Source: an uncultured Acidimicrobiales bacterium
GTDB taxonomy: Bacteria; Actinomycetota; Acidimicrobiia; Acidimicrobiales; SZUA-35
Assembly (NCBI GenBank): GCA_937976305.1
Contig: CALJSB010000030.1
Span: 1 to 42,383 of the forward strand
Direction: 5' to 3'
Length of the DNA: 42,383 nt
The first letter of the stretch is position 1; each line of letters begins with the position of its first letter. The position numbers and the translations under genes are program-made. Shown here in pieces: positions 1 through 39,963 of the stretch. Under the pieces are notes generated by a model that was not told the origin of the DNA, ran no database searches, and worked only from the letters and a program-made list of their open reading frames with translations.

Positions 1-28
1 GCAGGCGGGGGAAGATACGATCAACGTC

Positions 29-634
29 ATGACAACCCCTGGATTGCCCGTCGCCGATGGCGGCGCCCCGAGCGGCTTCGGTTTCGACATCTACCAGCAG
101 CTCCTCAGCTCACGAATCGTGTTTCTCGGCCAGCAGGTCGATGACACCATCTCGAACGCGATCGCTGCCCAGATGCTGTATCTGGCCGGTCAAGATCCAG
201 ACAAAGACATCTGGCTCTACATCAACTCTCCGGGTGGTTCGGTCACCGCAGGTATGGCCATCTACGACACGATGCAGTTCGTGAAGCCCGATGTCGCCAC
301 CGTATGCCTCGGCCTCGGCGCCTCAATGGGCCAGTTCCTGTTGACGGCAGGTGCACCGGGCAAGCGATTCGCTCTGCCGCACGCTCGCATCCTCATGCAC
401 CAGCCGAGCGCTGGCGTGCAGGGCCAAGCGACTGACATCGCGATCCAGGCCGAGAACCTCGTGCGCATCAAGCGTGAGATGGCTGAGCTGATCGCAGAGC
501 ACTCTGGTCAGGATGTCGAGACGATCGTTGCGGACTCTGACCGCGACAAATGGTTCACCGCCCAAGAGGCATGCGACTACGGCTTGTTCGACAAGGTCAT
601 CCAGCGGGCCGGCGAACTCACCGCCGACGAGTAA
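29..634 (+). CDS. clpP: ATP-dependent Clp protease proteolytic subunit ClpP
   Basis: 201-aa ORF with the typical ClpP length. Family-typical motifs GxSMG (GLGASMGQF) and MHQP, and a conserved N-terminus ([12 protein letters not shown]). Confidence 0.93.
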
Positions 635-812
635 CCGCCGCTCACAACTCGCGCGTGACGTTTTGTACCTGACCCTTATGGAGGGTCGGAGGTCGAGGTA
701 CACCTCGAGCGAGGACTCGGAGCGAAGCGACGCCGCAGCAGAGGTGTGCGTCGACCGCAGGCCCGGAGACGGGAGAGTCCGCGTGACGTTTCAGACCTGA
801 CCCCTAAGAGGT
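635..812. repeat. Two copies of a short intergenic repeat (ccgccgctcacaac ... gtgacgtttNNgacctgaccc) with stem-loops, at the convergent clpP/rpe junction
   Basis: Motif gtgacgttttgtacctgaccc at 655-675 and gtgacgtttcagacctgacccc at 783-804. Hairpins gacccttatggagggtc (671-687) and tcgaggt-ac-acctcga (693-708). The same motifs recur at 25893-26034. Confidence 0.7.
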
Positions 813-1498
813 CCAGGCGTCGAGGGCGAGTTGGCGGAGTTCGGTGATGGCGGCGGCTTTGCCGTCTGCGTGCTTGAACATCCACGAGCCGCTGATGAGC
901 ACGTTGGCGCCCGCCGCTGCTGCGCCACCGACCGTTGATGAGCTGATGCCGCCGTCGACTTCGAGATCAATCCAGTGGTCGGCCTGATCAAGCAGCGAGC
1001 GGGTCTCGCGGATCTTTGGCTCCATTGTCGAGATGTAGGCCTGGCCACCAAAGCCGGGGTTCACGGTCATTACCAGCACCATGTCGAGCAGGTCGGTCAC
1101 ATGGGCAATGGTGTCAACCGGTGTGTGCGGGTTGAGGGCAACAGCAGGCGAGGCGCCCAGCTCGCGGATCATTGCCAGCGTCCGATGCAGATGAAGGCAG
1201 GCCTCGGCATGGACGATGATGATCTGGCAACCAGCCTCGATGAAGTTGGGAATGAGGTGATCAGGTTGTTCGATCATGAGGTGAGCTTCGAACGGAACCG
1301 ACACCGCAGACCGACACGCTGCGATCACGTCGTGCCCGAAGGTGAGATTCGGCACGAAACGGCCGTCCATCACATCCCACTGAATCCGGTCGACACCGGC
1401 TTGTTCGAGTTCGACGCATTCATCACCCAGGCGGGCGAAGTCAGCGGGAAGAACCGACGGGGCGATCTTGATCGACGGGATCTTGGATTCGGAGGTCA
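804..1498 (-). CDS. rpe: ribulose-phosphate 3-epimerase
   Basis: Rpe signature KIAPSVLPADFARLG near the N-terminus, plus HLMIEQP, VMTVNPGFGGQ and LEVDGGI. The listed ORF is over-extended upstream; GTG at 1498 gives a protein of about 231 aa. Confidence 0.9.
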
Positions 1499-1507
1499 CG
1501 GCCGCCC

Positions 1508-5805: not shown

Positions 5806-6702
5806 CTAGCCGGCGAGCGAGCTCCAGTCGGCACGATCAACAGCGAGCGGCTGGGGTGAACGCACGACGATGGTCAATGTTTGAGCCGAACCCACCACTT
5901 CGATGCCAGTGATTGGCTGAGCGGGGGCAGGGCTGGCCAGATCTGCACTCCAGAAGAAGGCGAACGTTGACGGAGCGAGATCTCGACCGAGGAGGTTCTC
6001 GACTCGGTTGCCAGCTCCATTGAGGAGCCATGCTTCCCAGTTGACGGTGCTGCCGCCGAGGTTCACTCCGTAGACATCCACGTGACGGTGCTCGGCCGCA
6101 GTAGCAAAGCTTCCCGTGGCGCACGTCCAGACCGTGCCTGCGGGATACCACGAGAAGTAGCCGGCAAGTGGTGGTTCGGTGTTGGTGGTGACGACGTATT
6201 CCTTGCTCTCAGAGAACAACAGCATCACGTTGCCGCGAGAGAACTCGCCGGAATCAAGCCTGCCGACCCAGAACTCGAAGCCGCTTGGCTCGGCGGCACG
6301 GCCGAGAACGTTGCGGTAGACGAGCCGCACGAAGTCGGCGTTCGAGAGTGTTGAGTAGCGAGCGATGAACTCGTCAGAGCTGGCGAAGAAGTTGGACATC
6401 GACACCATGTCCCATTCGCCGGAGGCGAAGCCGTCGACCCAGAAGTCGAAACCAGCCTGGTCAGGGCTGCGGAGGAAGTAGGCCGAATACAGACGGTCGA
6501 TCGAGTCCGTCATTTGCGGACAGGTTGACGAATTCGCAGCCTGGGAAAGCACCGGAAGGGCTTGCGCCGCAGCGTTGTCGGACTGTGCCGCGCTGTCAGA
6601 GAGCGCAGCGTGGTTCGCTGCTGCTGCATCAGCACCACTCGGGTTCGAAAAGCCAAGCAGGCTCAACAGCAATGCACCGACAACAAAGATCCCACGCGCC
6701 AC
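5806..6702 (-). CDS. secreted protein with two DUF4214 repeats
   Basis: N-terminal signal peptide (MARGIFVVGALLLSLLGFSNPSGADA). Repeats RLYSAYFLRSPDQAGFDFWV and LVYRNVLGRAAEPSGFEFWV match DUF4214. A paralog lies at 25033..25884. Confidence 0.75.
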   Translation of the reverse strand: MARGIFVVGALLLSLLGFSNPSGADAAAANHAALSDSAAQSDNAAAQALPVLSQAANSSTCPQMTDSIDRLYSAYFLRSPDQAGFDFWVDGFASGEWDMVSMSNFFASSDEFIARYSTLSNADFVRLVYRNVLGRAAEPSGFEFWVGRLDSGEFSRGNVMLLFSESKEYVVTTNTEPPLAGYFSWYPAGTVWTCATGSFATAAEHRHVDVYGVNLGGSTVNWEAWLLNGAGNRVENLLGRDLAPSTFAFFWSADLASPAPAQPITGIEVVGSAQTLTIVVRSPQPLAVDRADWSSLAG

Positions 6703-14371: not shown

Positions 14372-15337
14372 CTAGTACGTCGACGCAGTGACGATGTTGT
14401 GGGGCGTTTCGCCGCGCTCGATGCGTTGGATGTTGGCGCCGATCACTTCGGCTGCGGTGTAGGGGTTGGTTTCACCAGCGATATGTGGCGTGACCGTCAC
14501 CCGCGGGTGGTTCCAAAGAGGGGAGTCGGCTGGGAGCGGTTCGGTGTGGAAGACGTCGAGCACCGCACCGCGTAGACCGGAAGACTCGTCGTCGACGCCA
14601 TCGTTGGCGAGCGCGGCGAGGAGCGCGCCGTCGTCGACCGTTGACCCTCGTCCAACGTTGATGAGGGCACCGGTGCCGAGCGCGGCGAGGGCGTCGGCAT
14701 CCAAGAGGTGTCTCGTCGCATCGCTCGCTGGCAACAGATTGATGACGACGTCGCATTGATCGAGAAACCGGTGGAGCTCGTCAGCCCCGATGAAGTGCTG
14801 GCCGAAGCTGGTCTGTTTGGCGCTGCGGCTCCACGTGATGATGTCGTGGCCAAACCCGGCGATGGTGTCGGCCACGACGGACCCGATGGCGCCAAAGCCG
14901 AGAATGCCGACGATTGTCTCAGGGTTTCGAGGTCCGATGGTCCAGTCGGCGTTGGGTTGCTGGCGCTGGTATTGATCAAACGAACGGCTGAAGTGCGTGA
15001 CCCAGTGCAGGCAGTATTCGGCAATGTCCTGCGACATTGCCGGGTCGACCAGACGTACGACGGGCACGCCATCTGGGACGAGGTTGAAGTCGACCTGGTC
15101 GATGCCAGCGCTCACCAGCATCAGGCCCCGCAGATTTGGATAGTTGGCCAGATCCTCCCAGTCATGCTTCCAGACGCAGAAGAACTCGACAGCCTCAGGG
15201 TCGACCGGGTCCGGCCAGAGGGTCACTTCGTGGTGGGGGAGTGCCCGGTGAAAGGCGTCGACCCAACGATCACGATTGCGGGTTGTCCGAAGAAGAATCA
15301 TCCGCCCCCAGCCAATCGCATAGGGGTCAGGTCTCAA
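14372..15337 (-). CDS. D-isomer-specific 2-hydroxyacid dehydrogenase (glyoxylate/hydroxypyruvate reductase A-like)
   Basis: NAD-binding GFGAIG, and VGRGSTVDDGAL ... H-I-A-G catalytic region. Start may be the internal M at 15301. Confidence 0.85.
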   Translation of the reverse strand: MRPDPYAIGWGRMILLRTTRNRDRWVDAFHRALPHHEVTLWPDPVDPEAVEFFCVWKHDWEDLANYPNLRGLMLVSAGIDQVDFNLVPDGVPVVRLVDPAMSQDIAEYCLHWVTHFSRSFDQYQRQQPNADWTIGPRNPETIVGILGFGAIGSVVADTIAGFGHDIITWSRSAKQTSFGQHFIGADELHRFLDQCDVVINLLPASDATRHLLDADALAALGTGALINVGRGSTVDDGALLAALANDGVDDESSGLRGAVLDVFHTEPLPADSPLWNHPRVTVTPHIAGETNPYTAAEVIGANIQRIERGETPHNIVTASTY

Positions 15338-15356
15338 ACGTTAACAACGCGAGCAG

Positions 15357-16418
15357 CTAGCGGAGTTGGGGGAGGACCTCGGTCGCGAGGCGTTCGAGGT
15401 TGGTGGCCATGAAGCTCGGGTCGATGCCTGGCGGTAGGCCAGATGAAGCGATGTCGGTGATGCCGTAGTCGTCAATGAACGAGCCGAGTTTCTCGACACA
15501 CTCGTCGACCGACCCGACGATCACGCCTTGGGGAATCGCGTCTGGGTCGCCCCATGCATAGGTGTCAGGCGTGTCGGCCATGAACGTGTCGTACACGCTC
15601 ATGCGGAAACGCTCGGCCGCTCGCAGCATGGGCCAGTCGCGCTCTTTGTCGTCGGTGACGTAGATCGAGCGGATGATGCCGTAGCGCTGCTTGGCCGGAT
15701 CCCGCCCGTCAGCCTCGAGGGCCTCGCGATAGGGGTCGAGCACCTCTGATCGTTTTCCCTGAGGGAGCAGGTGGGTGCCGAACCGGGCGGCCCGCATGGC
15801 TCCCGGCGTGCTCATCGCCGCGATCCACAGCGGCGGCCCACCCGGCTGGACAGGCTTGGGGTGCACGTCAACATCGGTCAGCGTGTAGCGCTTGCCCTCG
15901 TAGCTGAACGGGCCGTCTCCCCACGCCAGACGCAAGATGTCAATGCCTTCTTCGGTCATCGACACCCGATTCTTCAGCGGCACACCGAACGCCTTGAACT
16001 CGGCTGGCACGTATCCCATGCCGATGCCGAGCTCCATGCGCCCGTTCGAGATGTGATCGAGAATCGCCATCTCTTCGGCCAGCCGGATGGGGTGATACAG
16101 CGGAAGCAGAGCGATGTCGGTCGAGATGCGGATGTTGTTGGTGCGGGCGGCGATCGCGCCGGCCAACGGCTGGAACGCTGGCAGGTAGCCGTCTTCGAGG
16201 AAGTGGTGTTCGGTGAACCACACGTGGTCGAAGCCGAGCTCGTCGGCCAAGACGGCTTGGTCGATCGTGGCCGCGTACACGTCGGTCATCGACAGAGCGC
16301 TGTCTGGCGTGCGACGGCAGTCGTACATCACGCCGACGCGAAGCCCCGGCGTGTCGTTGTTCGCATCGTGGTTCCCCATGGCTGTCTTCTTACCGCGCTG
16401 GCTGACGCGGGTGTACAT
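15357..16418 (-). CDS. LLM-class flavin-dependent oxidoreductase (luciferase-like; possibly F420-dependent)
   Basis: Luciferase-like TIM barrel signatures (GFDHVWFTEHH, LGIGMGY). Alternative start at 16379. Confidence 0.8.
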   Translation of the reverse strand: MYTRVSQRGKKTAMGNHDANNDTPGLRVGVMYDCRRTPDSALSMTDVYAATIDQAVLADELGFDHVWFTEHHFLEDGYLPAFQPLAGAIAARTNNIRISTDIALLPLYHPIRLAEEMAILDHISNGRMELGIGMGYVPAEFKAFGVPLKNRVSMTEEGIDILRLAWGDGPFSYEGKRYTLTDVDVHPKPVQPGGPPLWIAAMSTPGAMRAARFGTHLLPQGKRSEVLDPYREALEADGRDPAKQRYGIIRSIYVTDDKERDWPMLRAAERFRMSVYDTFMADTPDTYAWGDPDAIPQGVIVGSVDECVEKLGSFIDDYGITDIASSGLPPGIDPSFMATNLERLATEVLPQLR

Positions 16419-23677: not shown

Positions 23678-24889
23678 CTAGTTCCGGGGTAGTTCCTTGA
23701 ACGGCGTCTCTTTTGCTGGGCCAGGTTCACGGGGAAGACCGAGCGCTCGTTCGCCGAGTGTGTTGCGCTGAATCTCATCCGTGCCGCCGCCGAGACTCAT
23801 GCCTCGGCAGTTGAGGATGTGATAGGCGAAGTAGTCCTCGTCGATTGCTCGCGGTGAGCCGTCGTCAGACCACGCCGGCGATGCCGGGAAGGCGAGTCGG
23901 GCCGCAGTGTCGGCGGCTGCCCGGCCCTGAATGGTCCGCCACAGCTTCCCGATCGACGGATGGACCCCTGTTTTCTTCAGGTAGCCCATGATCGTTTCGC
24001 CGGTGTAGAGCCGGGCCAGCTCTTGCCGGGTCACGGGGTCGTCGAGCTGGTTGCGATCGCGCGCCAATTCGATGAGTTGATCGACCGGTATCGGGACTCG
24101 GCCGGCCTTGGATCGCTGCCCGCTCGAGCCCCCAACGGAAGCGACACCGGTTTGGACTCGCTCGTGCGCGAGCAGCGCGACGGCAGTGCGCCAACCGCCG
24201 TTGACGTCGCCAACAACCCATGTCTTTGGGATGCGGGCCTCGTCGATGAACACTTCGTTGAATTCGGCCTCGCCCGTCATCTGGACAAGGGGACGAACCG
24301 TGACGCCGTCTTGCTCGACAGGGAGCACAAACATCGTGACACCACGATGTTTCGGTGCATCGAAGTCGGTTCGGGCCAACAAGATGGCGTACTGACTGTG
24401 CTGGGCTCCCGAGGTCCATACCTTCTGGCCCGTCACCACCCACTCGTCACCGTCGAGGTCGGCACGGGTGGCAAGCCCAGCAAGGTCCGAGCCGGCGCCA
24501 GGCTCGGAATACATCTGGCACCAGATGTCGTCGCCTCGCAGGCCGGGGCGCAAAAAGCGATCCTTGAGTTCGTCAGAGCCGAAGTCTCGGATCGTCGGCA
24601 TCGCCATACCCACGCCGATCCCGAAGACACTGTCTTCCCTCGGGACGAGTCCACGGCTCTCTTCGTTGTAGGCGGCTGCATATTCGGGACCGAGGCCTTG
24701 GCCGCCGTAGTCGGTCGGATAGTCGAGCCCAGTGAGTCCGGCGTCGTAGAGGGCAGCCCGCCACACCTTCGCCCGGTTGAGTTGGCCCACAACACCATCG
24801 AGCACAGTTGGTAGTTCGTTGTCGAAGAACGACCGAACGGCGAGGCGGAATTCGTCGACAGAGGGCGCGTTTTCGGTCACGGCGCACAT
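23678..24889 (-). CDS. acyl-CoA dehydrogenase family protein
   Basis: Three-domain ACAD architecture with a conserved middle beta-domain (WCQMYSEPGAGSDLAGL) and C-terminal catalytic region. Confidence 0.88.
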   Translation of the reverse strand: MCAVTENAPSVDEFRLAVRSFFDNELPTVLDGVVGQLNRAKVWRAALYDAGLTGLDYPTDYGGQGLGPEYAAAYNEESRGLVPREDSVFGIGVGMAMPTIRDFGSDELKDRFLRPGLRGDDIWCQMYSEPGAGSDLAGLATRADLDGDEWVVTGQKVWTSGAQHSQYAILLARTDFDAPKHRGVTMFVLPVEQDGVTVRPLVQMTGEAEFNEVFIDEARIPKTWVVGDVNGGWRTAVALLAHERVQTGVASVGGSSGQRSKAGRVPIPVDQLIELARDRNQLDDPVTRQELARLYTGETIMGYLKKTGVHPSIGKLWRTIQGRAAADTAARLAFPASPAWSDDGSPRAIDEDYFAYHILNCRGMSLGGGTDEIQRNTLGERALGLPREPGPAKETPFKELPRN

Positions 24890-25032
24890 TATCCCGGCGG
24901 GTTCAGCGAGCGAAAAGTCGCTCGGTCAAGGTGAGCCTGGTGGTGATGCAAAACATGCCCCATGGTCTCCTAGCGCGCCTCGTTGTACTCTTGCGCTTGC
25001 GCTCGACGGAGCGGAGGGAAAAGGTGAGGTTC

Positions 25033-25884
25033 ATGATTCGTCCACTGAAGCTGATCGCTGCGGCACTCTTGGCTGCGCTGATGGCGGCAACCTCGTTGGT
25101 CGCACCAACGCCGGCTTCTGCCGAGGGGCAGACACTGCCGCTTTCTGAATGCCCGTGGTTGACCGACCCGGTCGTCCGTCTCTACAGCGCCTATTTCCTA
25201 CGGGCTCCCGATCCGGGGGGTTTTGAGTTCTGGGTGGGGCGCGTCGACGAAGGTCAAAGTCTCGACGACATCTCGGACTTCTTCTCACAGGGCGAGGAGT
25301 TCGAGACCTTGTACGGCGACAAGACCAACGCCGAGTTTGTGGAGCTGATCTACCAGAACGTGCTCGAGCGTGCACCCGACCAAGGCGGCTTCGACTTCTG
25401 GTCAGGCCAACTCGATCAGGGTTTGATGACCCGTGGCCGCGTGATGCGGAACTTCTCCGAGAGTCCCGAGTTCGTCACCAAGACCGACACCAACCTGCCG
25501 CCCGCTGGCTTCTTCTCGACCTTCCCGTCCGGCACCGAATTCACCTGCGGCCGAGGTGGTGTCGTTGTCCCGTACGTTCAGTCACCGTCTTCGTGGTTTG
25601 TCTTGTTTGCGCCCCCCGGTGACGGCAGCGTGTGGCGGACCTTTGTCCACCCGATCGCGTCAAACGGTGAGTTCCTCGGTGATCCATCTCCGAGCCTCCA
25701 GGAAAACGACATCGATGCCTTCCGTTTGCACATCGGGTTCATGCCGGTGCGTGGCAACTTCTTGCAGGTCGGGCTGGCCGAAGACGATCTGCAGCTCTGG
25801 TCTGTCGTCGAGGTCGAGGGCAAGTTCGCATGCGATGCCCTCACCGACACCTGGGCCAACAACCCCTGCGGCATCAACCCGTAG
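25033..25884 (+). CDS. secreted protein with DUF4214 repeats (paralog of 5806..6702)
   Basis: AAGGTGAGG RBS, then ATG at 25033. Signal peptide MIRPLKLIAAALLAALMAATSLVAPTPASAEG. Repeats RLYSAYFLRAPDPGGFEFWV and LIYQNVLERAPDQGGFDFWS. Confidence 0.8.
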   Translation: MIRPLKLIAAALLAALMAATSLVAPTPASAEGQTLPLSECPWLTDPVVRLYSAYFLRAPDPGGFEFWVGRVDEGQSLDDISDFFSQGEEFETLYGDKTNAEFVELIYQNVLERAPDQGGFDFWSGQLDQGLMTRGRVMRNFSESPEFVTKTDTNLPPAGFFSTFPSGTEFTCGRGGVVVPYVQSPSSWFVLFAPPGDGSVWRTFVHPIASNGEFLGDPSPSLQENDIDAFRLHIGFMPVRGNFLQVGLAEDDLQLWSVVEVEGKFACDALTDTWANNPCGINP

Positions 25885-25892
25885 GAACAACC

Positions 25893-26034
25893 CCGCCGCT
25901 CACAACACGCCTTGTTGACGTTTGAGACCTGACCCCGCCGCTCACTTCGTTCGCTAACCGAGTTGTTCGCTGGCGCTCACAACTCGAGCCACGTGACGAA
26001 AAGTACCTGACCCCTATGAGGGCCAGTAGGGGTC
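25893..26034. repeat. Second locus of the ccgccgctcacaac / gtgacgNNNNNgacctgacccc repeat family (two copies) ending in hairpin gacccctatgagggccagtaggggtc
   Basis: ccgccgctcacaac at 25893-25906 (partial copy at 25935-25945). ttgacgtttgagacctgacccc at 25915-25936 and gtgacgaaaagtacctgacccc at 25993-26014. 8-bp perfect stem at 26009-26034 overlapping the stop of the acyl-CoA synthetase gene. Confidence 0.7.
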
Positions 26035-27699: not shown

Positions 27700-28368
27700 G
27701 TGATTGTGGGAAGACTGATTGAGGTGTCGTTGGGGTTCCCGACGGTCATTTTCACGACGCTCCTGCTCATCTCGCTCGGCTATTGGGTGATCGCAGCCTT
27801 CTCCGGAAACATCGATCTCGAAATCGATGCCGATGTCGGCGATGTCGGCACAGATGTTGGTGATGTCGGCGCAGACGGCGCCGGTGCTGATGGCGGTGGC
27901 TTCCTCGGCAATTTGCTTCAGAGTTTCGATCTGCACCACATGCCGATCACGGTCGTCATCACGGTCATCTCCCTCTTTGGCTGGGTCAGTTCGGGAATCG
28001 TCACGACACTCGCCGTGACAAATGGCGGGAGCGCCGGGATTCTCGTCGGCGTCTTCATTGCGCTCGGCGCCTTCGTCTTCTCGATCTTCATGGCCGGCCG
28101 AGTCGGCCGTATGTTGCGACCGTTCTTCGTGGCTGCGCTGCCGGTTCGGCGTGCCGATCTCATTGGCCGTATCTGCACCGTTCGCACCGGCAGGGTCGAC
28201 AAGTCATTCGGGCAGGCCGAGGTGAACGACGCCGAAAAGGCCGCCCACACCATTCAAGTTCGCTGCGCCGTCGACAACGAGTTGGTGGCAGGAAGCCAGG
28301 CTCTCATTGTGGATGTCGACAAAGAGGGGCGATTCATCGTCTCACCCGATGTCGACGGGCTCGTGTAG
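27700..28368 (+). CDS. NfeD-like (YqiJ/YuaF-type) membrane protein with C-terminal OB-fold
   Basis: N-terminal TM helices, an acidic DVGDVG repeat loop, further TM helices, then an NfeD-type beta-barrel tail (ICTVRTGRVDKSFGQAEVND ... IQVRCAVDNELVAGSQALIVDVDKEGRFIVSP). Confidence 0.75.
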   Translation: MIVGRLIEVSLGFPTVIFTTLLLISLGYWVIAAFSGNIDLEIDADVGDVGTDVGDVGADGAGADGGGFLGNLLQSFDLHHMPITVVITVISLFGWVSSGIVTTLAVTNGGSAGILVGVFIALGAFVFSIFMAGRVGRMLRPFFVAALPVRRADLIGRICTVRTGRVDKSFGQAEVNDAEKAAHTIQVRCAVDNELVAGSQALIVDVDKEGRFIVSPDVDGLV

Positions 28369-28454
28369 TTCGCAACCTCGGCTCTGTGGTGCAGGGTCAT
28401 CAACAGTCAGATCGCAAGTAACGGTTCTCAAACAAAGAGAAGAAAGAGGGACTC

Positions 28455-30371
28455 ATGTCCGGTGTTCTAGCCTTCGTAGTCGGCCTTGTGGTGATCGTTC
28501 TGGTCATCATTTTGCTGGTCGCGTTCGTCATTTCTCAGCTGTACCGCAAGGTGCCGCAGGGCAAGGCGCTCGTTGTCAGCACGACCCGCAACGTCGTTGT
28601 GTCGTTCACTGGTCGGACTGTTGTTCCGATCTTTCACAAAGCCGAGATCATGGACATCTCGGTCAAGACCATCGAGATTGACCGCCGCGGTACGGAGGGC
28701 CTGATCTGTCAGGACAACATCCGCGCCGACATCAAGGTCAACTTCTTCGTCCGAGTCAACAAGGCCGAGGAAGACGTCATCAAGGTCGCGCAGGCCATCG
28801 GCTGCGAGCGTGCCTCTGACCCGGTCACGCTCGAAGAGCTTTTTGCTGCGAAGTTCTCTGAAGCGTTGAAGACCGTCGGTAAGGCCATGGACTTCGTCTC
28901 GCTGTACACCGAGCGAGCATCGTTCCGCGATCGCATCATCGAAGTGATCGGCACCGACCTCAACGGCTACGCCCTCGAAGACGTTGCGATCGACTACCTC
29001 GAGCAAACGCCGCTCGAGCAACTCGACACCAACAACATTCTCGATGCCCAGGGCATCCGCAAGATCACCGAGCTCACCGCCGTCGAGCACGTCGCCACCA
29101 ACAACGCGGCGAACGACGAAGCCAAGATGATCACGGCAAAGAACGTCGAGACCCGTGAGGCCGTGCTTGAGCTCGAGCGCCAGCAGGCCGACGCCGAGGC
29201 CCGTCAACGTCGTGAGGTCGAGGCCGTGCGCGCTCGTGAGCAGGCAACGATTGACACGATCAAGGCCGAGGAGAAGCTGCGGGCCGAGATGGCCAATCTC
29301 GAGACCGACCAGAAGCTCGGCATCGAACAAGAGAACCTTCAGCGAGAGGTCGAGGTCGCCGGGAAGAACCGCGAGCGAGTGCTTGCCGTTGAGGCCGAGC
29401 GCGTTCGCAAGGCAGCCGAGCTCGAGGACATGAGCCGTCGCGTTGAGACACTCGCCGCCGAAAAGGCGCTCGAAGAAGAGAAGAGCACGATTGCCGACAT
29501 TCGCCGCAACCGAGTGGCTGTCGACAAGACCGTGGCTGAACAAGAAGAAGCCATCGCCACACTGCGAGTTGTCGAAGAGGCAAACCGTCAGCGCGACGCC
29601 GTTGTGATCGAGGCGGAGGCCATCGCCCAGGGTGATCTCGTCAAGGACATCAAGGCAGCCGAAGCAGCCGAGACGGCAGCAACGCATGAGGCAAAGCGTC
29701 AGCTCACGCTGGCTCAGGCCACGATGGAGTCGTCTGATCTCGAGGCCAGGGCCAAGATCCGTATGGCTGAAGGTGTGAAGGCTGAGGAGGCGGCACAAGG
29801 TCTCGCCGAAGTCGACGTGATGACCGCCCGGGCCGACGCTGAAGAGAAGCTCGGCATGGCCGAAGTCAATGTCGATCTGGCCAAGGCCGGCATCATCCGC
29901 GAGCAGGGTACAGCCGAGGCCGAGGCCGTCGAGGCCAAGCTCAAGGGCGAAGCAGCGGGTCTCCACGACAAGGCTGCCGCCATGAAGGAACTCGAAGGAG
30001 TCGGCCAGGAGCACGAGGAGTTCATCCGCAACCTCGAAGCTGAGACCAAGGTCCGCCTGGCCCAAGTCGATGCCAACGTTGGTGTGGCCACGGTGCAGGC
30101 CGAAGCCATGAAGTCCGGCCTCGAGAGTGCCGACATCGACATCGTCGGTGGTTCGGACATCTTTGTCGATCGGATCATCGGGGCCATTGGCCATGGCAAG
30201 GCAGTCGACGGGTTCGTCGAGAACTCCGAGCTCGCAACAACGGCCCTGGCTCCGTACGCCAGCGGTGACGAAGACCTCGTCGCCAAGATTGCCGAAGCCA
30301 TTTCCGGCCTTGGAGCCGACGGCATCCGCGATCTCTCCGTCGCCGACCTGCTTCGTCAGATCGGCAAGTAG
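28455..30371 (+). CDS. flotillin-family SPFH/band-7 protein (YqiK/FloT-like)
   Basis: N-terminal TM, an SPFH domain (QGKALVVSTTRNVVVSF ... ISVKTIEIDRR ... IRADIKVNFFVRV), and a very long E/A/K/R-rich coiled-coil flotillin region. Confidence 0.88.
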   Translation: MSGVLAFVVGLVVIVLVIILLVAFVISQLYRKVPQGKALVVSTTRNVVVSFTGRTVVPIFHKAEIMDISVKTIEIDRRGTEGLICQDNIRADIKVNFFVRVNKAEEDVIKVAQAIGCERASDPVTLEELFAAKFSEALKTVGKAMDFVSLYTERASFRDRIIEVIGTDLNGYALEDVAIDYLEQTPLEQLDTNNILDAQGIRKITELTAVEHVATNNAANDEAKMITAKNVETREAVLELERQQADAEARQRREVEAVRAREQATIDTIKAEEKLRAEMANLETDQKLGIEQENLQREVEVAGKNRERVLAVEAERVRKAAELEDMSRRVETLAAEKALEEEKSTIADIRRNRVAVDKTVAEQEEAIATLRVVEEANRQRDAVVIEAEAIAQGDLVKDIKAAEAAETAATHEAKRQLTLAQATMESSDLEARAKIRMAEGVKAEEAAQGLAEVDVMTARADAEEKLGMAEVNVDLAKAGIIREQGTAEAEAVEAKLKGEAAGLHDKAAAMKELEGVGQEHEEFIRNLEAETKVRLAQVDANVGVATVQAEAMKSGLESADIDIVGGSDIFVDRIIGAIGHGKAVDGFVENSELATTALAPYASGDEDLVAKIAEAISGLGADGIRDLSVADLLRQIGK

Positions 30372-30374
30372 CCG

Positions 30375-33300
30375 GTGAGCGACGCCTCTTCGGAAGCATC
30401 GGCTGATCCGCCGGGTGGCGGAGACGTCGGTGCCCCTGGCGAAGAACCTGCTGCCTCCAGCGGTGAGGCTGGCCAAGGCCAGATCGCACAGGGAACCTAT
30501 GAGCTCCTCCGCGGTCGACTCTCGACTGCGGCCAGCGAGTTGGTCAAGCGCGCCAATGCCCTGAACGACGAGCGGCTCGGTGTCTTTGGATCGTCCAAGC
30601 TCGAGTTGGTTGCCACTGAACGGGTGAGGACCGAGTCAAACGCCGTCCCTCGCGATGTCGTGTCGGTCGGCGATCAGTTGGTGCTGGCCTACAACGTGGC
30701 GGCGGGCATCAAGGCCGAGACGCGATCTGAAGACGTCTTCGCGGTGCATCACCTCGAGTTGGGTGATGGCCCAACCGACATCACGTTCAGCCCCAATCCT
30801 GAGGGCCTGGTCGGCTCTGTCCTGGCTGATGATCAGTTTCATCGTGACTTCGACGAGCTCTACACCTATTTCAAGGAGGCCAACCTTCAGCAGCTGTATC
30901 GCACCGCGCAACGAATGCTTGCGGTGTTCCGTACCGGCGGTGGGGCCAACGACGTTCGAGTGCTGCGGTGGCAGATCGAAAACGACGGGTCGCTCCGCTA
31001 CCTCGACGCCCGCGGCGAGCGAGATCACCGCTTTCCCGCCAACCAAGATGTTGAGTGGACCCTCACGACACGGGCCGAACACGTCGGTGGCCGCCACATC
31101 GAGATCGGCGACCGCATCATGGTCAACCCGCTCGGCGGCTCGCTCGACATCCGCCTCGACGACGGCGGCGAAGGCACCCTCCTTCTGAGCGACCGTCTCG
31201 AGCACGCCGACCAATCGCTCGCCGATTGTCAGATCAGCTGGGCCAAGGCCGGCGATCTTCGCCTCATCGACGTGTTGCCCTACGGCGAAACCCAGCACCG
31301 GTACTACATCGTCAACATGCTGGTGCACTCCGCCGTGCGGATGGATGCCCTTGGTGAGGCGTTCCGCCAGCTGCCAGACAATCAGGGCATCATCTTTCCC
31401 GACGGCGTCTATCTGAAGACGGGAGAGGTGCGCACGTTCGACCTCGCGGTCGACGAGATGGAACTGCTTGAGGTCGTGCGCTCGCCCAACGGCGAGGACG
31501 TCATGTATGTGTTCCACGAACGGATGGGTGGCCGCTCGATCCTGCTGCCCTACAACGTCGTGCGCCAAGAGGTCGCGGCGCCCATCTGGTGTCATGGTCA
31601 CTCACTCTTCGACGACGGCACGATGGTTGTGTTTCGAGAAGAGCCAGAGCCAACGACGATTCACCCACTGCAGATCTGGGTGACGCCATTTTCGAGCGAC
31701 GAGTGGTACGCCGCCCAACCTCGTGAGGCTACGAAGTTCGATCGCATTGGTAACGCCTCGTTGGTCAACGGCATCGCTGATGCGCTGGCCCTCGGCCGAC
31801 TGGTATCTGAAGTCGAGCCATCCACCGCCGTCTACGCCGACGTTCTGGCGTCCACCGGGCGGTTCATCGACGCTCACCATTGGGCAGCCGACGACGCAGT
31901 TGGCAACTTGGCCGAGCCGGCCAACGACATTCGCCTTGTTGCCGAGCAAGTCATCGACGAGTTCGAGCGGCTGCAAGAGGTGCAGGCCTCAGCTGCGGCG
32001 ACCTTGGCCGAAGCAAGCGAAGAAACCGAGCGGACCCTCGAGGATCTCCGCCTCAGCCCACCGAAGACCACCGAGGGATACATCGACGGTTTGGCCGACA
32101 TTCGCCGCCGCATCGGTCACCTGCACACCATTCGCGAACAGCGCGAGATTGATCTGGTTCGCGTTGACGAACTCATTGGTTCGGCCGAGACGGCCTACAA
32201 CGATCTGGCCCAATCTGCTGCCGCCCACCTCTCGACTGACAACGCGTTCGTTCCCTATCACGAGCGGTTGACAGAGATCTCCAACCAGACACCAAACCTT
32301 CTCTCGTCGCTCGAAGCAACTGAGCTGATGGACGAGGTCGACGCCGTCGCCGAATCCATGGATCTCGTCGCCGGCACCGTCGGCGACTTGGTCGTCGAAG
32401 ACCCGCGAGTCCGAACCTCCGTGCTCGAACAGGTCTCCGGCGTGCTGGCCGAGCTGAACCGTGTCCGGGCCGGGGCGGAAGGCAAGCGCGAAGAACTCGT
32501 GCAGTCAGAAACGGGTGCGGCCTTTGCCACTGAGCTCGGCTTGTTCGGCCAGTCGATTGCCGCCGCGGTCGGACGGGCCGACACGCCCGAAGCGTGCGAC
32601 GAAGCCCTCGCTCGCCTGCTCCTCCAGCTCGAGCAACTCGAAACCGCAGGCCCTCGGACCGAGGCGCAGCTCGACGAGTTGAACCAACGACGCGATCAGG
32701 TCACCGAAGCGCTTTCAGGTCGCCGGCAGCAACTGGTCGACGAACGCCAGCAGCGAGCCGAACGTTTGGTGTCCGCAGCCGACCGCACGCTCGTGCGCGT
32801 GGGGGAGCGAGCGCAAACGCTCGACTCTGTCGACGATGTCAACGGCTTCTATGCCGCCGACCCCATGGTCGCCCGCGTTCGCAAGCTGGTCGACGATCTT
32901 CGTGAGCTTGGCGAGCCTGTTCGAGCCGACGAGCTGCAGTCGAAGTTGGGGGCATCTCGCGACAATGCAGCCCGAGCGCTGCGAGATCGCCAAGATCTCT
33001 TTGATGGCGAAGCGGTCAAGCTCGGCCGTCATCGCTTCAGCGTCGATGACCGTGCCCGCGAACTCACCATCGTCCCGAGCGGCGAGCAACTCAACGCGGT
33101 GCTCACGGGTACTGATTTGCGCCTCCCCGTCACCGGCCCAGGACTCGACAACCTCAAAGAACTGTGGGATCAGCCACTGTCGTCAGAAAGCCCCGAGCTC
33201 TACCGATCGGCCTTCCTGGCCGGTGATCTGCTGCTCGACACGCTGCACGGCGGTGCCGACCCCGAACGAGACGAAGCCATCAGAACTGCGCTTCGCAACG

Positions 33301-35924
33301 AGGATGCCGATGCGATCCTCCGAATCGTGCGGGCCGAGGTCGACAACCGCCTCGACGAGGGATACGACCGAGGTGTCCACGACCTCGACGCAGCCCGCAT
33401 TCTCGAGGGCTTCGGAGCCGTCGCTCACGTGGCAGACACCCTGACGGCAACGAGCTCGACCAGAGCGGCCGCCCAGATTGCGTGGGCCCACCGCTTCTCT
33501 GACCACCAGCGTGATCGCTGGACCGACCGAGGACGGGCTGGAGCCACGCTGGGCCTCGACAAGGCCACCGTCGCCGAGCTCACTGAGGAACTGGCCGCTG
33601 ACTTGGCCCGGACCTCTGACGCTGAAGCTGAGGTGGCGATCGCTGATCGTCTGGTCGCCCGCTACCTGATGGCCGAGTTGCTGAACCCCGATGGTTTGGC
33701 GTTTGCCCAGACGCGGGCCGCATCGGAGCTCACCGACCGGTTCGCATCGTCGCCAGATGTGCGGGCCCTCGTCGACGGAATGGACGACGATCTCGGCGGT
33801 GTCACGACGGTGCTTGCCGACTACGTGAGCCGCGAAGTGCGCGACGTCGAGAGCCATCTGATCGATGAGATCGTCGCCGCACTTGTCACTCCTGATCTTC
33901 CCCGTCGCATTGTCGATGTCGAGCTCGCCGTGTCGGTCGACGGACTGATCGGCCGTCACGTCACGTTCGAAGCTGGCACGCTCGCTGATCGAGTCGATGG
34001 CCTACTCGAAACAGTCGACCGCCATCGGCTGGCAACGCTCCCTGCTCACCGAGCGTTTGCGGCGGCTCGTCGCGAAGCGCTCGATGATGTGAAAGACACC
34101 CTGCGTGTCGACGAGCTCGAGCCTCGGGTGCCCGAGGGCTTTGTTCGTAACCAACTGATCGACCAGGTGTATCTGCCGCTCATCGGCGACAACTTGTCCC
34201 GCCAGATCGGCACCGTTGACGATCGCACGGGCGCCCGATCTGGCCTGTTGATGTTGCTGTCGCCCCCGGGCTACGGCAAGACCCTGCTTGTTGAATACCT
34301 CGCCGATCGCCTCGGCATGGCCTTGGTCAAGGTGTCTGGCCCAGGTTTGGGTCACGACGTCACGTCGCTCGACCCCGGCCAGGCGCCGAGCGCGACTGCA
34401 GCCCGCGAGATCGAACGCATCAACTTGTCATTCGCCGTTGGCACCAACGTGATCCTCTACCTCGACGACATTCAGCACACCAACGCTGAGTTTCTCCAAC
34501 GGTTCATTGCCCTCTGTGATGCGCAACGGCGAGTCGAGGGTGTGTGGAACGGTGAGTCGACCTCGTTCGACCTGCGAGGCAAACGCTTCGCCGTCGTCAT
34601 GGCCGGCAACCCCTACACCGAGTCGGGTGAGCGGTTCCGCGTGCCGGACATGCTGGCCAACCGAGCCGACACCTACAACCTCGGTGACGTGCTCGAAGGC
34701 AACGCTGATCTGTTCGCCAAGAGCTATCTCGAGAACGCCCTCAGCTCGAACCCGGTGCTGGCGCCACTTGTCGGCACCGACCCTGGCGATCTCGAACGCT
34801 TCTTCCGTGCCGCCGACGGCGAGCCGCTCGACGAGTCGTCGCTCAAGCAGAGCTACTCGTCCGCTGAAGCCAACGAGATCGTCTCGGTGTTGCGTCACCT
34901 GCGCCAGGTGCAAGAGGTCGTTCTCACGGTGAACCGTCAGTACATCGCTTCTGCCGCCAGTGCAGATGCCTATCGGACCGAACCGCCGTTCCTCCTGCAG
35001 GGCTCGTACCGAAACATGGCGCGGATGGCATCCAAGCTGCTGCCCGCGATGACCGCCGAAGAGGTCGATCGGATCATCGATGAGCACTACACCGCAGAAT
35101 CGCAAGCGCTCACGGGTGCCGCGGAATCAAACCTGCTGAAGCTTGCTGAGATGCGGGGAACGATGACGGACGAGCAGCGAGCTCGCTGGGACGACATCTT
35201 GTCGACCTTCCGTCGTCAGCAGCGAATGGGTGGCGACGAGCGAGATCCAGCCACGCGGGTGGTTGCGGCCATCGAAAACGTGGCTGAGGCGCTCGGCAAT
35301 CCGGCATTGGCCGCCGCCAGTGCTCCAGCCCCGCCGCCTGAGCCCGAGCAGGTCGAGAAAGCAGAGCCAGTAGATCCGCCGCCTCCACCACAGATCGTGA
35401 TGCCGCCGATCGAGATGCCTCCCGTGGTGATTCCACCAATCGAGGTCAACGTCAACGCGCCTGAAACCGGAACTGACCCGGCCGCGGCTGCGGCGATGAT
35501 CTCCGCCATCGAGCGAGTGGCTGATGCTCTCAGCATGCAGGAGCCGCTTGCGGCCCGAGCCATCGACCTGCTCGCGTCTGAAGCGTCGAAGCGACGTGGG
35601 GGCGCCCGCGCTGCGAGCGTCGGGCCGTCTGTGCCCCCTCGACCGCCGGTGCCTCGGCCGCAGTCGTCAACCAGAGATCCGATTCGAGCGGCATCAGAGG
35701 CGCAGCCACCGTCGCAGAAGGCGGTAGCCAAACGGGCGGCTGCAAAGAAGCCGACCAAGGCCGCAGGCCATCGCATTGCTGCGAATCGTCGGGCCTCGGC
35801 GCCGCCGCAGCCGCCGCAGCAGTTCCGTCGGGACCACAAGCCAATGTCGCCAAAGCCTCCGGCACCGCCGGGGAGTGGGAAGCCTCCTCAAAAGCCGAAG
35901 GCGAAGAAGCCTCCGGCTGAGTAG
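30375..35924 (+). CDS. giant (1849 aa) protein of unknown function with an AAA_5 (MoxR/McrB/dynein-like) ATPase module near residues 1180-1340 and a Pro/Lys-rich C-terminal tail
   Basis: GTG start 3 nt after the flotillin stop. Walker A LLSPPGYGKT, Walker B ILYLDDIQ, and sensor/Arg-finger-like MAGNPYTESGERFRVPDMLANRAD. About 1150 aa of N-terminal sequence that I cannot assign. Tail contains PPPPPQIVMPPIEMPPVVIPPIEV and KPPAPPGSGKPPQKPKAKKPPAE. Confidence 0.85.
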   Translation: MSDASSEASADPPGGGDVGAPGEEPAASSGEAGQGQIAQGTYELLRGRLSTAASELVKRANALNDERLGVFGSSKLELVATERVRTESNAVPRDVVSVGDQLVLAYNVAAGIKAETRSEDVFAVHHLELGDGPTDITFSPNPEGLVGSVLADDQFHRDFDELYTYFKEANLQQLYRTAQRMLAVFRTGGGANDVRVLRWQIENDGSLRYLDARGERDHRFPANQDVEWTLTTRAEHVGGRHIEIGDRIMVNPLGGSLDIRLDDGGEGTLLLSDRLEHADQSLADCQISWAKAGDLRLIDVLPYGETQHRYYIVNMLVHSAVRMDALGEAFRQLPDNQGIIFPDGVYLKTGEVRTFDLAVDEMELLEVVRSPNGEDVMYVFHERMGGRSILLPYNVVRQEVAAPIWCHGHSLFDDGTMVVFREEPEPTTIHPLQIWVTPFSSDEWYAAQPREATKFDRIGNASLVNGIADALALGRLVSEVEPSTAVYADVLASTGRFIDAHHWAADDAVGNLAEPANDIRLVAEQVIDEFERLQEVQASAAATLAEASEETERTLEDLRLSPPKTTEGYIDGLADIRRRIGHLHTIREQREIDLVRVDELIGSAETAYNDLAQSAAAHLSTDNAFVPYHERLTEISNQTPNLLSSLEATELMDEVDAVAESMDLVAGTVGDLVVEDPRVRTSVLEQVSGVLAELNRVRAGAEGKREELVQSETGAAFATELGLFGQSIAAAVGRADTPEACDEALARLLLQLEQLETAGPRTEAQLDELNQRRDQVTEALSGRRQQLVDERQQRAERLVSAADRTLVRVGERAQTLDSVDDVNGFYAADPMVARVRKLVDDLRELGEPVRADELQSKLGASRDNAARALRDRQDLFDGEAVKLGRHRFSVDDRARELTIVPSGEQLNAVLTGTDLRLPVTGPGLDNLKELWDQPLSSESPELYRSAFLAGDLLLDTLHGGADPERDEAIRTALRNEDADAILRIVRAEVDNRLDEGYDRGVHDLDAARILEGFGAVAHVADTLTATSSTRAAAQIAWAHRFSDHQRDRWTDRGRAGATLGLDKATVAELTEELAADLARTSDAEAEVAIADRLVARYLMAELLNPDGLAFAQTRAASELTDRFASSPDVRALVDGMDDDLGGVTTVLADYVSREVRDVESHLIDEIVAALVTPDLPRRIVDVELAVSVDGLIGRHVTFEAGTLADRVDGLLETVDRHRLATLPAHRAFAAARREALDDVKDTLRVDELEPRVPEGFVRNQLIDQVYLPLIGDNLSRQIGTVDDRTGARSGLLMLLSPPGYGKTLLVEYLADRLGMALVKVSGPGLGHDVTSLDPGQAPSATAAREIERINLSFAVGTNVILYLDDIQHTNAEFLQRFIALCDAQRRVEGVWNGESTSFDLRGKRFAVVMAGNPYTESGERFRVPDMLANRADTYNLGDVLEGNADLFAKSYLENALSSNPVLAPLVGTDPGDLERFFRAADGEPLDESSLKQSYSSAEANEIVSVLRHLRQVQEVVLTVNRQYIASAASADAYRTEPPFLLQGSYRNMARMASKLLPAMTAEEVDRIIDEHYTAESQALTGAAESNLLKLAEMRGTMTDEQRARWDDILSTFRRQQRMGGDERDPATRVVAAIENVAEALGNPALAAASAPAPPPEPEQVEKAEPVDPPPPPQIVMPPIEMPPVVIPPIEVNVNAPETGTDPAAAAAMISAIERVADALSMQEPLAARAIDLLASEASKRRGGARAASVGPSVPPRPPVPRPQSSTRDPIRAASEAQPPSQKAVAKRAAAKKPTKAAGHRIAANRRASAPPQPPQQFRRDHKPMSPKPPAPPGSGKPPQKPKAKKPPAE

Positions 35925-39101: not shown

Positions 39102-39189
39102 TCCACTAACCCTAGGGGGTCGAACGGCCTCTGTCACTCAGGGAGTGTTACCCACACTTTAGGTGGTTGTTGCGCTGCAAAGCGTGGGG

Positions 39190-39963
39190 TCAGGTCGCAG
39201 ACCAGCCACCGTCATATCCAACGGTCTGACCGGTCTGGAAACGGCTCGTGCCGTCCAGGAAAATGCCGCAGAAATCAGCAAATTCCTCCATCGTGCCGAG
39301 CCGTTTCATTGGCACTGCGGCTTCGATGCGAGCCCGCACGGCTGGGTCGTCTGCTCCGGTGGCGGCCCGGAATCCATCGAAGTCCATGAAGTTCGTGCCG
39401 ACCGCGTTCACCTGCACGCCGCTCGACGCGACCTCGGCGGCGACGTTCTTCACCAGCATGTTGGCGGCGGCGCGCGTCGCCGAATACAGCGATGCGTTCG
39501 GAGCGACCTTTAAGCCCGTTGCGCTCGTGATGGCAAGCATCTGACCTGCGCCGGCTTCGACCATCGGCGGTAGGAAGACCCGAAGCGCTCGGTAGACGGC
39601 CTCCAGGTTGCCGTTGACCACGGTGGCGAGATCGTCGGCCGACGATTCGAGAAAGCGACCGGTGACAATCGTGCCGCTGAAGAACACGACGGAGTCGACC
39701 CGGCCGTAGGCGTCCATGGCCATGTCGAGCAGGCGAGGTGCGGCGGTGGGTTCGGCAATGTCAGCGACGCCGTCAACCACCCAGCTGTTGGCACCGAGCT
39801 CATCGACAGCAGCGACAACCTCGTCGGTCGGGTCGCCCAGCACGAGATCAAAGCCTCGCTTCGCCAACATCGTCGCCAACGACGGTCCGACATAGTGGCG
39901 AGCGTTGGTAACGATGGCGACCGGGTTTGGGCCCGTGTCGCGGCTCGATGTGGTGTCGCTCAC
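39190..39963 (-). CDS. SDR-family oxidoreductase
   Basis: Rossmann N-terminus (VAIVTNARHYVGPSLA) and the S ... YxxxK pattern (SLYSATRAAANMLVKN). Confidence 0.8.
   Translation of the reverse strand: MSDTTSSRDTGPNPVAIVTNARHYVGPSLATMLAKRGFDLVLGDPTDEVVAAVDELGANSWVVDGVADIAEPTAAPRLLDMAMDAYGRVDSVVFFSGTIVTGRFLESSADDLATVVNGNLEAVYRALRVFLPPMVEAGAGQMLAITSATGLKVAPNASLYSATRAAANMLVKNVAAEVASSGVQVNAVGTNFMDFDGFRAATGADDPAVRARIEAAVPMKRLGTMEEFADFCGIFLDGTSRFQTGQTVGYDGGWSAT

Follow-up and report, generated by a model that had tools for sequence, protein, structure and literature searches.

A dispersed repeat at gene ends in an Acidimicrobiales genome and its probable relation to TIRYT-type transposases

Introduction

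What is the repeated sequence that fills the spacers of two convergent gene pairs, 25 kb apart, in a genome of the Acidimicrobiales, and how did it come to be there? The stretch of DNA analysed here (the window) is a complete contig of 42,383 nt from a high G+C Acidimicrobiales MAG, and the homologues of its genes belong to named Acidimicrobiales or Ilumatobacter. Near its start clpP (29-634, plus strand) converges with rpe (804-1499, minus strand) across a spacer of 169 nt, and further along a DUF4214 gene (24808-25884, plus strand) converges with the gene for an AMP-binding acyl-CoA synthetase (ACS; stop codon 26014-26016, minus strand) across 129 nt. The window has two DUF4214 genes (5806-6702 and 24808-25884), of which only the second abuts a repeat. 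The original prediction identified all four of the genes at these junctions correctly, and proposed that the repeats there are either a REP/MITE-like dispersed element or a bidirectional terminator module specific to this lineage.

Five copies of a conserved core

The conserved part of the repeat is a core of 27-30 nt with the form GYGTRACG-(T/A-rich 6 nt)-ACCTGACCCC-TA, present in five copies where none is expected by chance. A 31-nt nhmmer profile of the core detects these five in the window and no others (E-values 3e-8 to 4e-6). When aligned, they share G(C/T)GT(G/A/T)ACG, a 6-nt A/T-rich spacer (TTTTGT, TTTCAG, TTTGAG or AAAAGT) and then ACCTGACCC(C/T)TA(N)G. At locus 1, the clpP/rpe junction, copy 1a (CGCGTGACGTTTTGTACCTGACCCTTATG, 652-680, plus strand, E=3e-8) has its outer end pointing right, and copy 1b (CGCGTGACGTTTCAGACCTGACCCCTAAGA, 780-809, plus strand, E=5e-8) includes the stop codon and the last Ser codon of rpe. 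At locus 2, the DUF4214/ACS junction, unit 2a (25893-25939, plus strand) begins 8 nt past the DUF4214 stop codon and comprises an inner block (25893-25906) and a core (25913-25939, E=4e-6); copy 2b (CACGTGACGAAAAGTACCTGACCCCTATGA, 25990-26019, plus strand, E=2e-6), in which the spacer is of the AAAA type, includes the stop codon and the last Ser codon of the ACS gene. Both pairs are arranged head-to-tail. The remaining copy, unit 3 (15319-15363, minus strand, core 15345-15319), is single and matches unit 2a in inverted orientation with 83% identity over 41 nt. It lies between the stop codon of a luciferase-like monooxygenase gene (15357-15359) and the ATG of a 2-hydroxyacid dehydrogenase gene (15301), which are co-directional. 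All five copies, one single and two dimers, thus occupy intergenic DNA or terminal codons. The outer end reads GGGGTCAG in copies 1b, 2a, 2b and 3, and in all copies of a second Acidimicrobiales MAG described below, whereas copy 1a carries AGGGTCAG instead.

The motif GTGACGTTTNNGACCTGACCC was predicted to occur twice at each of the two convergent junctions, and this was borne out: there are four matches at up to three mismatches in the window against 0.00 expected (100 shuffles), among them 655-675 (one mismatch), 783-803 (exact) and 25915-25935 (one mismatch), and the AAAA variant at 25993-26013 was recovered by both a repeat search and the nhmmer profile. The predicted TTTT/AAAA difference between copies is also correct. 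The companion motif CCGCCGCTCACAAC, said to occur twice between clpP and rpe, is found there only once, at 635, and exactly again at 25893. The assignment of the repeat to convergent 3' ends holds for both of these loci but not for the overlooked fifth copy (15319-15345, minus strand), with its co-directional neighbours.

Upstream of the core the repeat is variable, often with CGCCGCTCAC and a small hairpin whose sequence differs from copy to copy. The inner block of unit 1a (CCGCCGCTCACAAC, 635-648, plus strand) begins on the base after the clpP TAA stop codon; in the window this block is exact only at 635 and 25893, with degenerate versions at 25935 and 25970. The degenerate blocks (25935-25948, CCGCCGCTCACTTC; 25970-25983, CTGGCGCTCACAAC) fall in the plus-strand segment between units 2a and 2b (25935-25989), which resembles the flank of a copy in the second MAG, CALLGK01 (L010:1311). 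The sequence CGCCGCTC(A/G)C also adjoins copies in CALLGK01 (L030, L010).

Chance similarity, an assembly artefact or the remnants of small coding sequences would be a far-fetched explanation of these copies. Each core does end in ACC TGA in one frame (...V-T-F-x-T-stop), as does an SDR gene of the window (..GCG ACC TGA CCCC, with ACCTGACCC at 39187-39195), but the core profile gives this SDR site only E=3.4 and no matches are expected by chance. Locus 1 is moreover carried by two independent assemblies, the clpP/rpe junction being confirmed in one from another sample with 99.95% identity over 3,927 nt (L117). As for coding remnants, third-codon positions are as conserved as the others, F-C becomes K-S in copy 2b, and the inner block stands in different frames in units 1a and 2a.

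A 7-codon ORF (ATG CGA TTG GCT GGG GGC GGA TGA; 15321-15298, minus strand) begins inside unit 3 and runs into the start of the 2-hydroxyacid dehydrogenase gene, whose ATG (15301) it overlaps with its TGA as ATGA, possibly a translational-coupling artefact of insertion.

Insertion at gene ends

In relatives both junctions are short and free of the motif. Between rpe and clpP the spacer is 0 nt in L186 (RPE 96% identical), 12 nt in L187 (RPE 92%), 45 nt in L188 (RPE 80%) and 76 nt in L224-228 (RPE 82%), the last with a different small repeat; between the ACS and DUF4214 genes it is 27 nt in L189/L190 (ACS 78%), and in L192 (ACS 79%) the genes overlap (-8 nt). With spacers from -8 to 76 nt and no motif in any of them, the 169-nt and 129-nt spacers of the window are therefore lineage-specific insertions. 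No core copies were found in ~70 kb of relatives' DNA, and presence/absence polymorphism at orthologous sites is seen across five sets of relatives. Elsewhere in the window, the other convergent pairs in which both partners have Pfam support are separated by 15 nt (2746/2762) and 6 nt (17107/17114), and long spacers are therefore no requirement of this genome.

The protein ends tell the same story. RPE terminates in ..AWTSRES, ..AWASRS or ..AWTTRLA in relatives but in ..AWTS in the window, where the last Ser codon is TCT rather than AGC (807-809) and the TAG stop codon (804-806, minus strand) is the first triplet of TAGGGGTCAGG. ACS proteins of relatives end in ..RDPYW plus one to three variable residues, against ..YWPS in the window, encoded up to TCA TAG GGGTCAGG. 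From these altered C-termini, and from the position of TAG inside the repeats, it follows that the repeats replaced the terminal codons of rpe and of the ACS gene and supply their stop codons. Locus 3 is less clear-cut: its spacer of 55 nt is only 11 nt longer than the unalignable 44-nt spacer of relatives, and it therefore looks like a replacement or an old insertion. Neither a target-site duplication, relative to the empty sites, nor a defined target site was seen.

That the window repeats are an inserted dispersed repeat is thus very likely, and the comparison with relatives shows that the copies entered this Ilumatobacter-like Acidimicrobiales lineage after its split from the closest sampled relatives. 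The dispersed-element half of the original prediction fares well: the repeat is dispersed, sits in intergenic DNA or terminal codons, is absent from five sets of relatives and occurs also in CALLGK01. The repeats are caught shortly after insertion, at the ends of ordinary genes, and the junctions give a clean 'before and after' view in which near-zero convergent spacers are expanded and the last codons and stops of housekeeping genes are rewritten.

Locus 1 shows further variation. A block composed of unit 1a and a unique spacer (635-767, plus strand) is 100% identical in L116 (sample ERZ6864376) beside different downstream genes. The spacer has an imperfect hairpin (arms 691-706 and 741-756) as well as a local hairpin at 669-689, and no further copy of it was found anywhere searched. 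L116 as a whole is 100% identical to window 1-767 and then continues into unrelated genes, encoding a 93-aa protein, a histidine kinase, a LuxR-type response regulator and a 766-aa protein. The breakpoint (767/768; L116 6378/6379) lies 13 nt upstream of copy 1b, outside the repeat core, and stems from a rearrangement or insertion at strain level or else from a chimeric assembly. L116 also has a tRNA ~165 nt upstream of clpP, just past the window start. In the relatives with 82% RPE identity the rpe/clpP spacer (L224 10700-10775) contains two copies of a direct repeat, ATAGCCGGTTAAGCAG, and a hairpin, and it seems that small repeats have built up at this junction separately in different lineages.

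Distribution in other genomes

A scan of a genome collection with ACGTTTNNNACCTGACCC gave mostly chance singletons among the matches listed. The Acidimicrobiales MAG CALLGK01 has, among these matches, at least five sites in four contigs and a degenerate inverted partner in L074. All its copies read GT(G/A)ACGTTTTGTACCTGACCCC, and in four of these TAGG comes next. Apart from the repeat, BLAST detects no DNA similarity between CALLGK01 and the window, yet window 651-675 (copy 1a) is 100% identical over 25 nt to L010 7693-7669. The CALLGK01 copies again lie at the ends of genes, most often in the form stop-(CTCC)TAGGGGTCAGGTACAAAACGTCACG with a variable hairpin after it, and occur as singles plus one inverted doublet (L074 2258-2300). 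The Acidimicrobiales sample thus amounts to 10 copies and one degenerate partner; relative to the adjacent transcript four of the 10 are in sense and six in antisense orientation.

Outside the Acidimicrobiales, a Planctomycetales MAG and an Acidobacteria MAG were each matched in at least three contigs among the matches listed. In both, palindromic units of 70-100 nt are bounded by AAAGGGGTCAGGTCC(C/G)AAACG as terminal inverted repeats, and palindromic doublets at several loci by ACGTTT-N3-ACCTGACCCC. Specificity to this lineage, as originally proposed, is consequently too narrow, given that the core recurs in other phyla and that its terminal motif fits a published transposase-associated signature (see below). 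A scan of JGI metagenomes with ACGTTTNNNACCTGACCCCTA gave only four chance matches, and one of IMG/VR gave 64 single matches, chance or coding sequence. BLAST against plasmids found nothing, and a literature search by literal sequence returned only irrelevant primers.

Hairpins, terminators and host function

Short perfect hairpins had been predicted beside the motifs. They do exist locally (669-677/681-689, 794-798/808-812 and 26009-16/26027-34) but are different at each copy, and their folding does not surpass that of shuffled sequence (z from -1.0 to +1.6). Whole-spacer folds reach z=-2.3 at most, on opposite strands at the two loci. RNAalifold on the 10 Acidimicrobiales copies gives no conserved pair. 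The 'perfect' 8-bp hairpin at copy 2b is formed by pairing of the element's GACCCCTA with TAGGGGTC, and the latter arm (26027-34) is made of native, widely conserved ACS codons (D-P-Y). With no conserved pairs, folds at shuffle level and a hairpin arm that is native to the ACS gene, the conserved entity is therefore sequence, not structure. A conserved REP palindrome was rejected on the same RNAalifold and shuffling results.

The element's TAG at rpe and at the ACS gene lies exactly two codons past a native C-TGG (Trp), giving CUGG(A/C)CCU-CNUA-GGGGUCAG (807-816 and 26017-26026). Copy 1a has an equal arrangement, CCGACCCTC-CAT-AAGGGTCAG (681-689), without any gene. The spacing may stem from base-pairing in the choice of target, from microhomology or from a terminal hairpin that is part of the element.

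A scan of the three loci for a hairpin followed by a T-run gave one match, against 0.4-0.5 per region in shuffles. It falls at copy 2b (minus strand, 26026-26007; one of the five copies), where the AAAA that replaces TTTT reads UUUU on the ACS sense strand, directly after CUGGCCCU-CAUA-GGGGUCAG. Plausibly this U-tract is a one-off exaptation, or merely a spacer variant. The repeat as such does not have a G+C-rich hairpin and U-tract in fixed position, and its orientation is mixed, so an intrinsic or bidirectional terminator is not supported. The bidirectional terminator module of the original prediction thus has against it the zero RNAalifold pairs, the single copy of five with a hairpin and T-run, the mixed orientation and the 6-15 nt spacers elsewhere in the window.

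More broadly, the repeat might be a host-selected cis element kept for a role at gene ends, either a terminator or 3'-end stability module or a site for a nucleoid protein, regulatory protein or recombinase. Every copy lies at a gene end, the bipartite core (GTGACG ... CTGACC) resembles a protein site, and 25 nt are identical between two otherwise unalignable genomes; copy 2b has its hairpin and UUUU on the ACS sense strand, and a strain-level breakpoint falls 13 nt upstream of copy 1b. The closest relatives, however, lack the core at the same junctions, other convergent pairs manage with 6-15 nt, no structure is conserved, and hairpins and terminator-like matches stay at shuffle level. The 10 copies are of mixed orientation (four sense, six antisense), and the L116 breakpoint is outside the core. 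On balance we regard selection for such a host role as quite unlikely.

Several other candidates were tried and rejected. Searches for known Rfam RNAs (at the gathering threshold for the window and 13 loci, and in E-value mode for locus 1) gave only tRNAs, none of them in the window. A Sigma-70 promoter could be imagined from the -35-like GTGACG/TTGACG and TA(N)G(R)N 16 nt away, but the final T is missing in all but one copy and a promoter scan gave no sites. An ECF-type -35 (AACGTTT) is found in minority variants only, with no -10 element. Integron attC core sites (RYYYAAC / GTTRRRY) did not match by inspection, and MIRU-like translational-coupling units were dismissed on account of inconsistent orientation to genes.

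A probable link to TIRYT transposases

RAYT-like Y1 transposase genes named TIRYT are flanked by inverted repeats sharing GGGGWSAS, and the moderately abundant families of these repeats include single copies, dimers and clusters (Di Nocera et al. 2013, PMC3733652). TIRYT correspond to TnpA_REP subclass 2.1, found in 14.9% of strains, with the consensus GGGG[AT][CG]A[CG] (Quentin et al. 2018, PMC6006769). The outer end of the window core, GGGGTCAGGT, fits this signature, and GGGGTCAG fits it exactly.

Published TIRYT sequences were used to recover PF01797 genes with flanking repeats. The repeats flanking the recovered TIRYT-type Y1 genes include AAAAGGGGTCAGG..., GGTGTCAGGTACC and GGGGACAGGT. 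In L223 the PF01797 gene stands between two perfect 21-nt repeats, AAAAGGGGTCAGGACTCTTTT, of which the downstream one overlaps the stop codon (GAG TCC TGA), and extra copies of AAAAGGGGTCAG form a short array upstream. The L221 gene, an orthologue of R. baltica rba2408, is flanked on both sides by AAAAAGGTGTCAGGTACCTTTTT, its stop codon being the TGA of ACCTGAC, and the L194 gene (an IMG/VR locus) has AAGGGGACAGGT...CGTC on both sides. These three loci carry GGGGTCAGG, GGTGTCAGGTACC and GGGGACAGGT, respectively, and share one polarity: the GGGG end is distal to the gene, ACGT/CGTC is proximal, and the transposase stop codon is the TGA in ACCTGAC or TCCTGAC. This polarity matches the ACC-TGA-CCCC polarity of the window core. 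Further TIRYT loci have GGTGACAGTGCAC or GGGGACGTTTCG repeats. The downstream inverted repeat overlaps the gene end, with the stop inside (A/T)CCTGAC, at L223 2325-2352 and L221 2735-2775, and a transposase stop within the downstream repeat accounts for the resemblance of the core to a gene end (ACC TGA) at every landing site. Use of this core is not universal among TIRYT groups: at an Acidobacteria-type locus (L193) the flanking repeat is another one, CGTCGGGGAGGATGGGGCACCC.

The match between the core and proven TIRYT repeats is confined to ~9-10 nt and the nearby ACGT/CGTC, the inner halves being different. Pfam detected no Y1 or other transposase encoded in the 42-kb window, and tblastn and regular-expression searches of ORFs detected no RAYT-like genes in ~29 kb of CALLGK01 and other motif-bearing loci. 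Judged on this sequence likeness, the repeats probably constitute a REP-like, TIRYT-type non-autonomous family, a known class newly seen in an Acidimicrobiia lineage, and we consider a TIRYT enzyme the probable agent of their mobilisation. The copies would be short non-autonomous interspersed repeats of ~30-47 nt, with a variable inner part (often CCGCCGCTCAC and a small variable hairpin) followed by the conserved asymmetric core ...ACCTGACCCC-TA. The core may be what a RAYT-like Y1 (HUH) tyrosine transposase of the TIRYT / TnpA_REP subclass 2.1 type recognises as an end. The copies would then be terminal-repeat units of a 'TIRtron', single or in pairs, and a transposase encoded by one gene elsewhere in the genome would copy them in trans. 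As the junctions show, the copies landed in very short spacers at the 3' ends of genes, overwriting the last one to three codons of rpe and of the ACS gene and donating TAG; any effect on transcription or 3' ends would be secondary and copy-specific. If this reading is true, a Y1 gene flanked by inverted GGGGTCAGGTAC... repeats is expected.

The repeats of Tn3-family elements also have a GGGG-first outer end. The copies could accordingly be MITE-like relics of a DDE-type insertion sequence or a Tn3-like transposon, with the core as one terminal inverted repeat and the copies as solo ends or decayed elements, but we think this improbable. The outer end of the core and the presence/absence polymorphism at orthologous sites would agree with such relics, as would the inverted placement of units 3 and 2a, outer ends outward, around a 10.6-kb segment. 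That segment, however, contains only housekeeping-type genes and no transposase, for which a composite or Tn3-like transposon between the two units was rejected; no window element is bounded by an inverted pair, the copies being direct or solo; no target-site duplication is seen relative to empty sites; and the terminal motif fits the published Y1/TIRYT signature better.

A more far-reaching proposal, to which we give little weight, treats the ~19-nt core ACGTTT-N3-ACCTGACCCC as a single recognition sequence, either ancient or spread horizontally, with 3'-end-guided singlets and host exaptation. Its host range, a core common to the TIRYT repeats of Acidimicrobiia, Planctomycetota and Acidobacteriota and probably Aminicenantes, is doubtful. 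It is similarly unlikely that in Acidimicrobiia head-to-tail singlets are guided to gene 3' ends and exapted as stop-codon/terminator cassettes, and only tentatively would we see an example of this in the TTTT>AAAA variant, as creating a U-tract for the ACS gene.

Comparison with known repeat families

Placed beside TIRtron terminal inverted repeats, the window repeats have the same terminal GGGG[AT][CG]A[CG], are likewise short and intergenic, occur as singles, dimers or clusters, and have the GGGG end distal and a TGA inside the repeat; in both cases a single-copy or absent transposase gene is expected. They differ in that the inner two-thirds of the window core (ACAAAACGTCACG) is lineage-specific and that the window pairs are head-to-tail rather than inverted, inverted dimers being found in other phyla. 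Head-to-tail dimers are reported as negligible in tagged REP families, whereas both window pairs are of this type.

With REP sequences and REPINs, mobilised by RAYTs and tagged by GTAG or CGTC, the window repeats share a non-autonomous nature and an extragenic location mostly downstream of genes, at convergent or co-directional junctions. A REP, however, is a conserved palindrome of 20-40 nt, while the window core is non-palindromic with variable adjacent hairpins. No GTAG tag is present in the window family; CGTC (as GACG) occurs in the core of seven of the 10 copies and AACG in the other three, and about half of the 10 have a small hairpin beside CGTC, different in sequence each time.

Gene ends are also altered by bacterial MITEs such as Rickettsia palindromic elements and Correia elements, which can contribute codons, stops or terminators. 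Like the window repeats they are small insertions tolerated inside or at the ends of coding regions, but they have defined inverted termini and, for Correia elements, target duplications, neither of which is seen in the window.

The main texts of PMC3733652 and PMC6006769 contain no occurrence of Actinobacteria, and on the TIRYT reading the hosts of RAYT/TIRYT-type repeats would come to include an Actinomycetota (Acidimicrobiia) lineage. The biology of TIRYT is poorly characterised, with mobilisation yet to be demonstrated; a cross-phylum core would be a concrete substrate for biochemistry. For annotation, the repeats account for unusual C-termini and spurious small ORFs in MAGs of this Acidimicrobiia group, and likewise for contig breaks or strain-level rearrangements there.

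Two minor observations concern neighbouring sequence. A tandem array of ~7 copies of a 19-nt unit, GGGGAGAGAAAAGGTGTCA, abuts a copy of the GGTGTCAGGTACC repeat in L211 (679-815), ~1.2 kb upstream of a Pirellulaceae-type TIRYT gene. In the window itself, positions 27700-35924 hold a conserved three-gene block encoding proteins of 222 aa, 638 aa and 1,849 aa. The first two have no Pfam match and PADLOC gives the block only a negligible LmuB match (E=7e-4); the 1,849-aa protein has DUF3686 ('ATPase involved in DNA repair'), DUF7902 and an AAA domain, and the three genes are found in the same order in relatives (L189).
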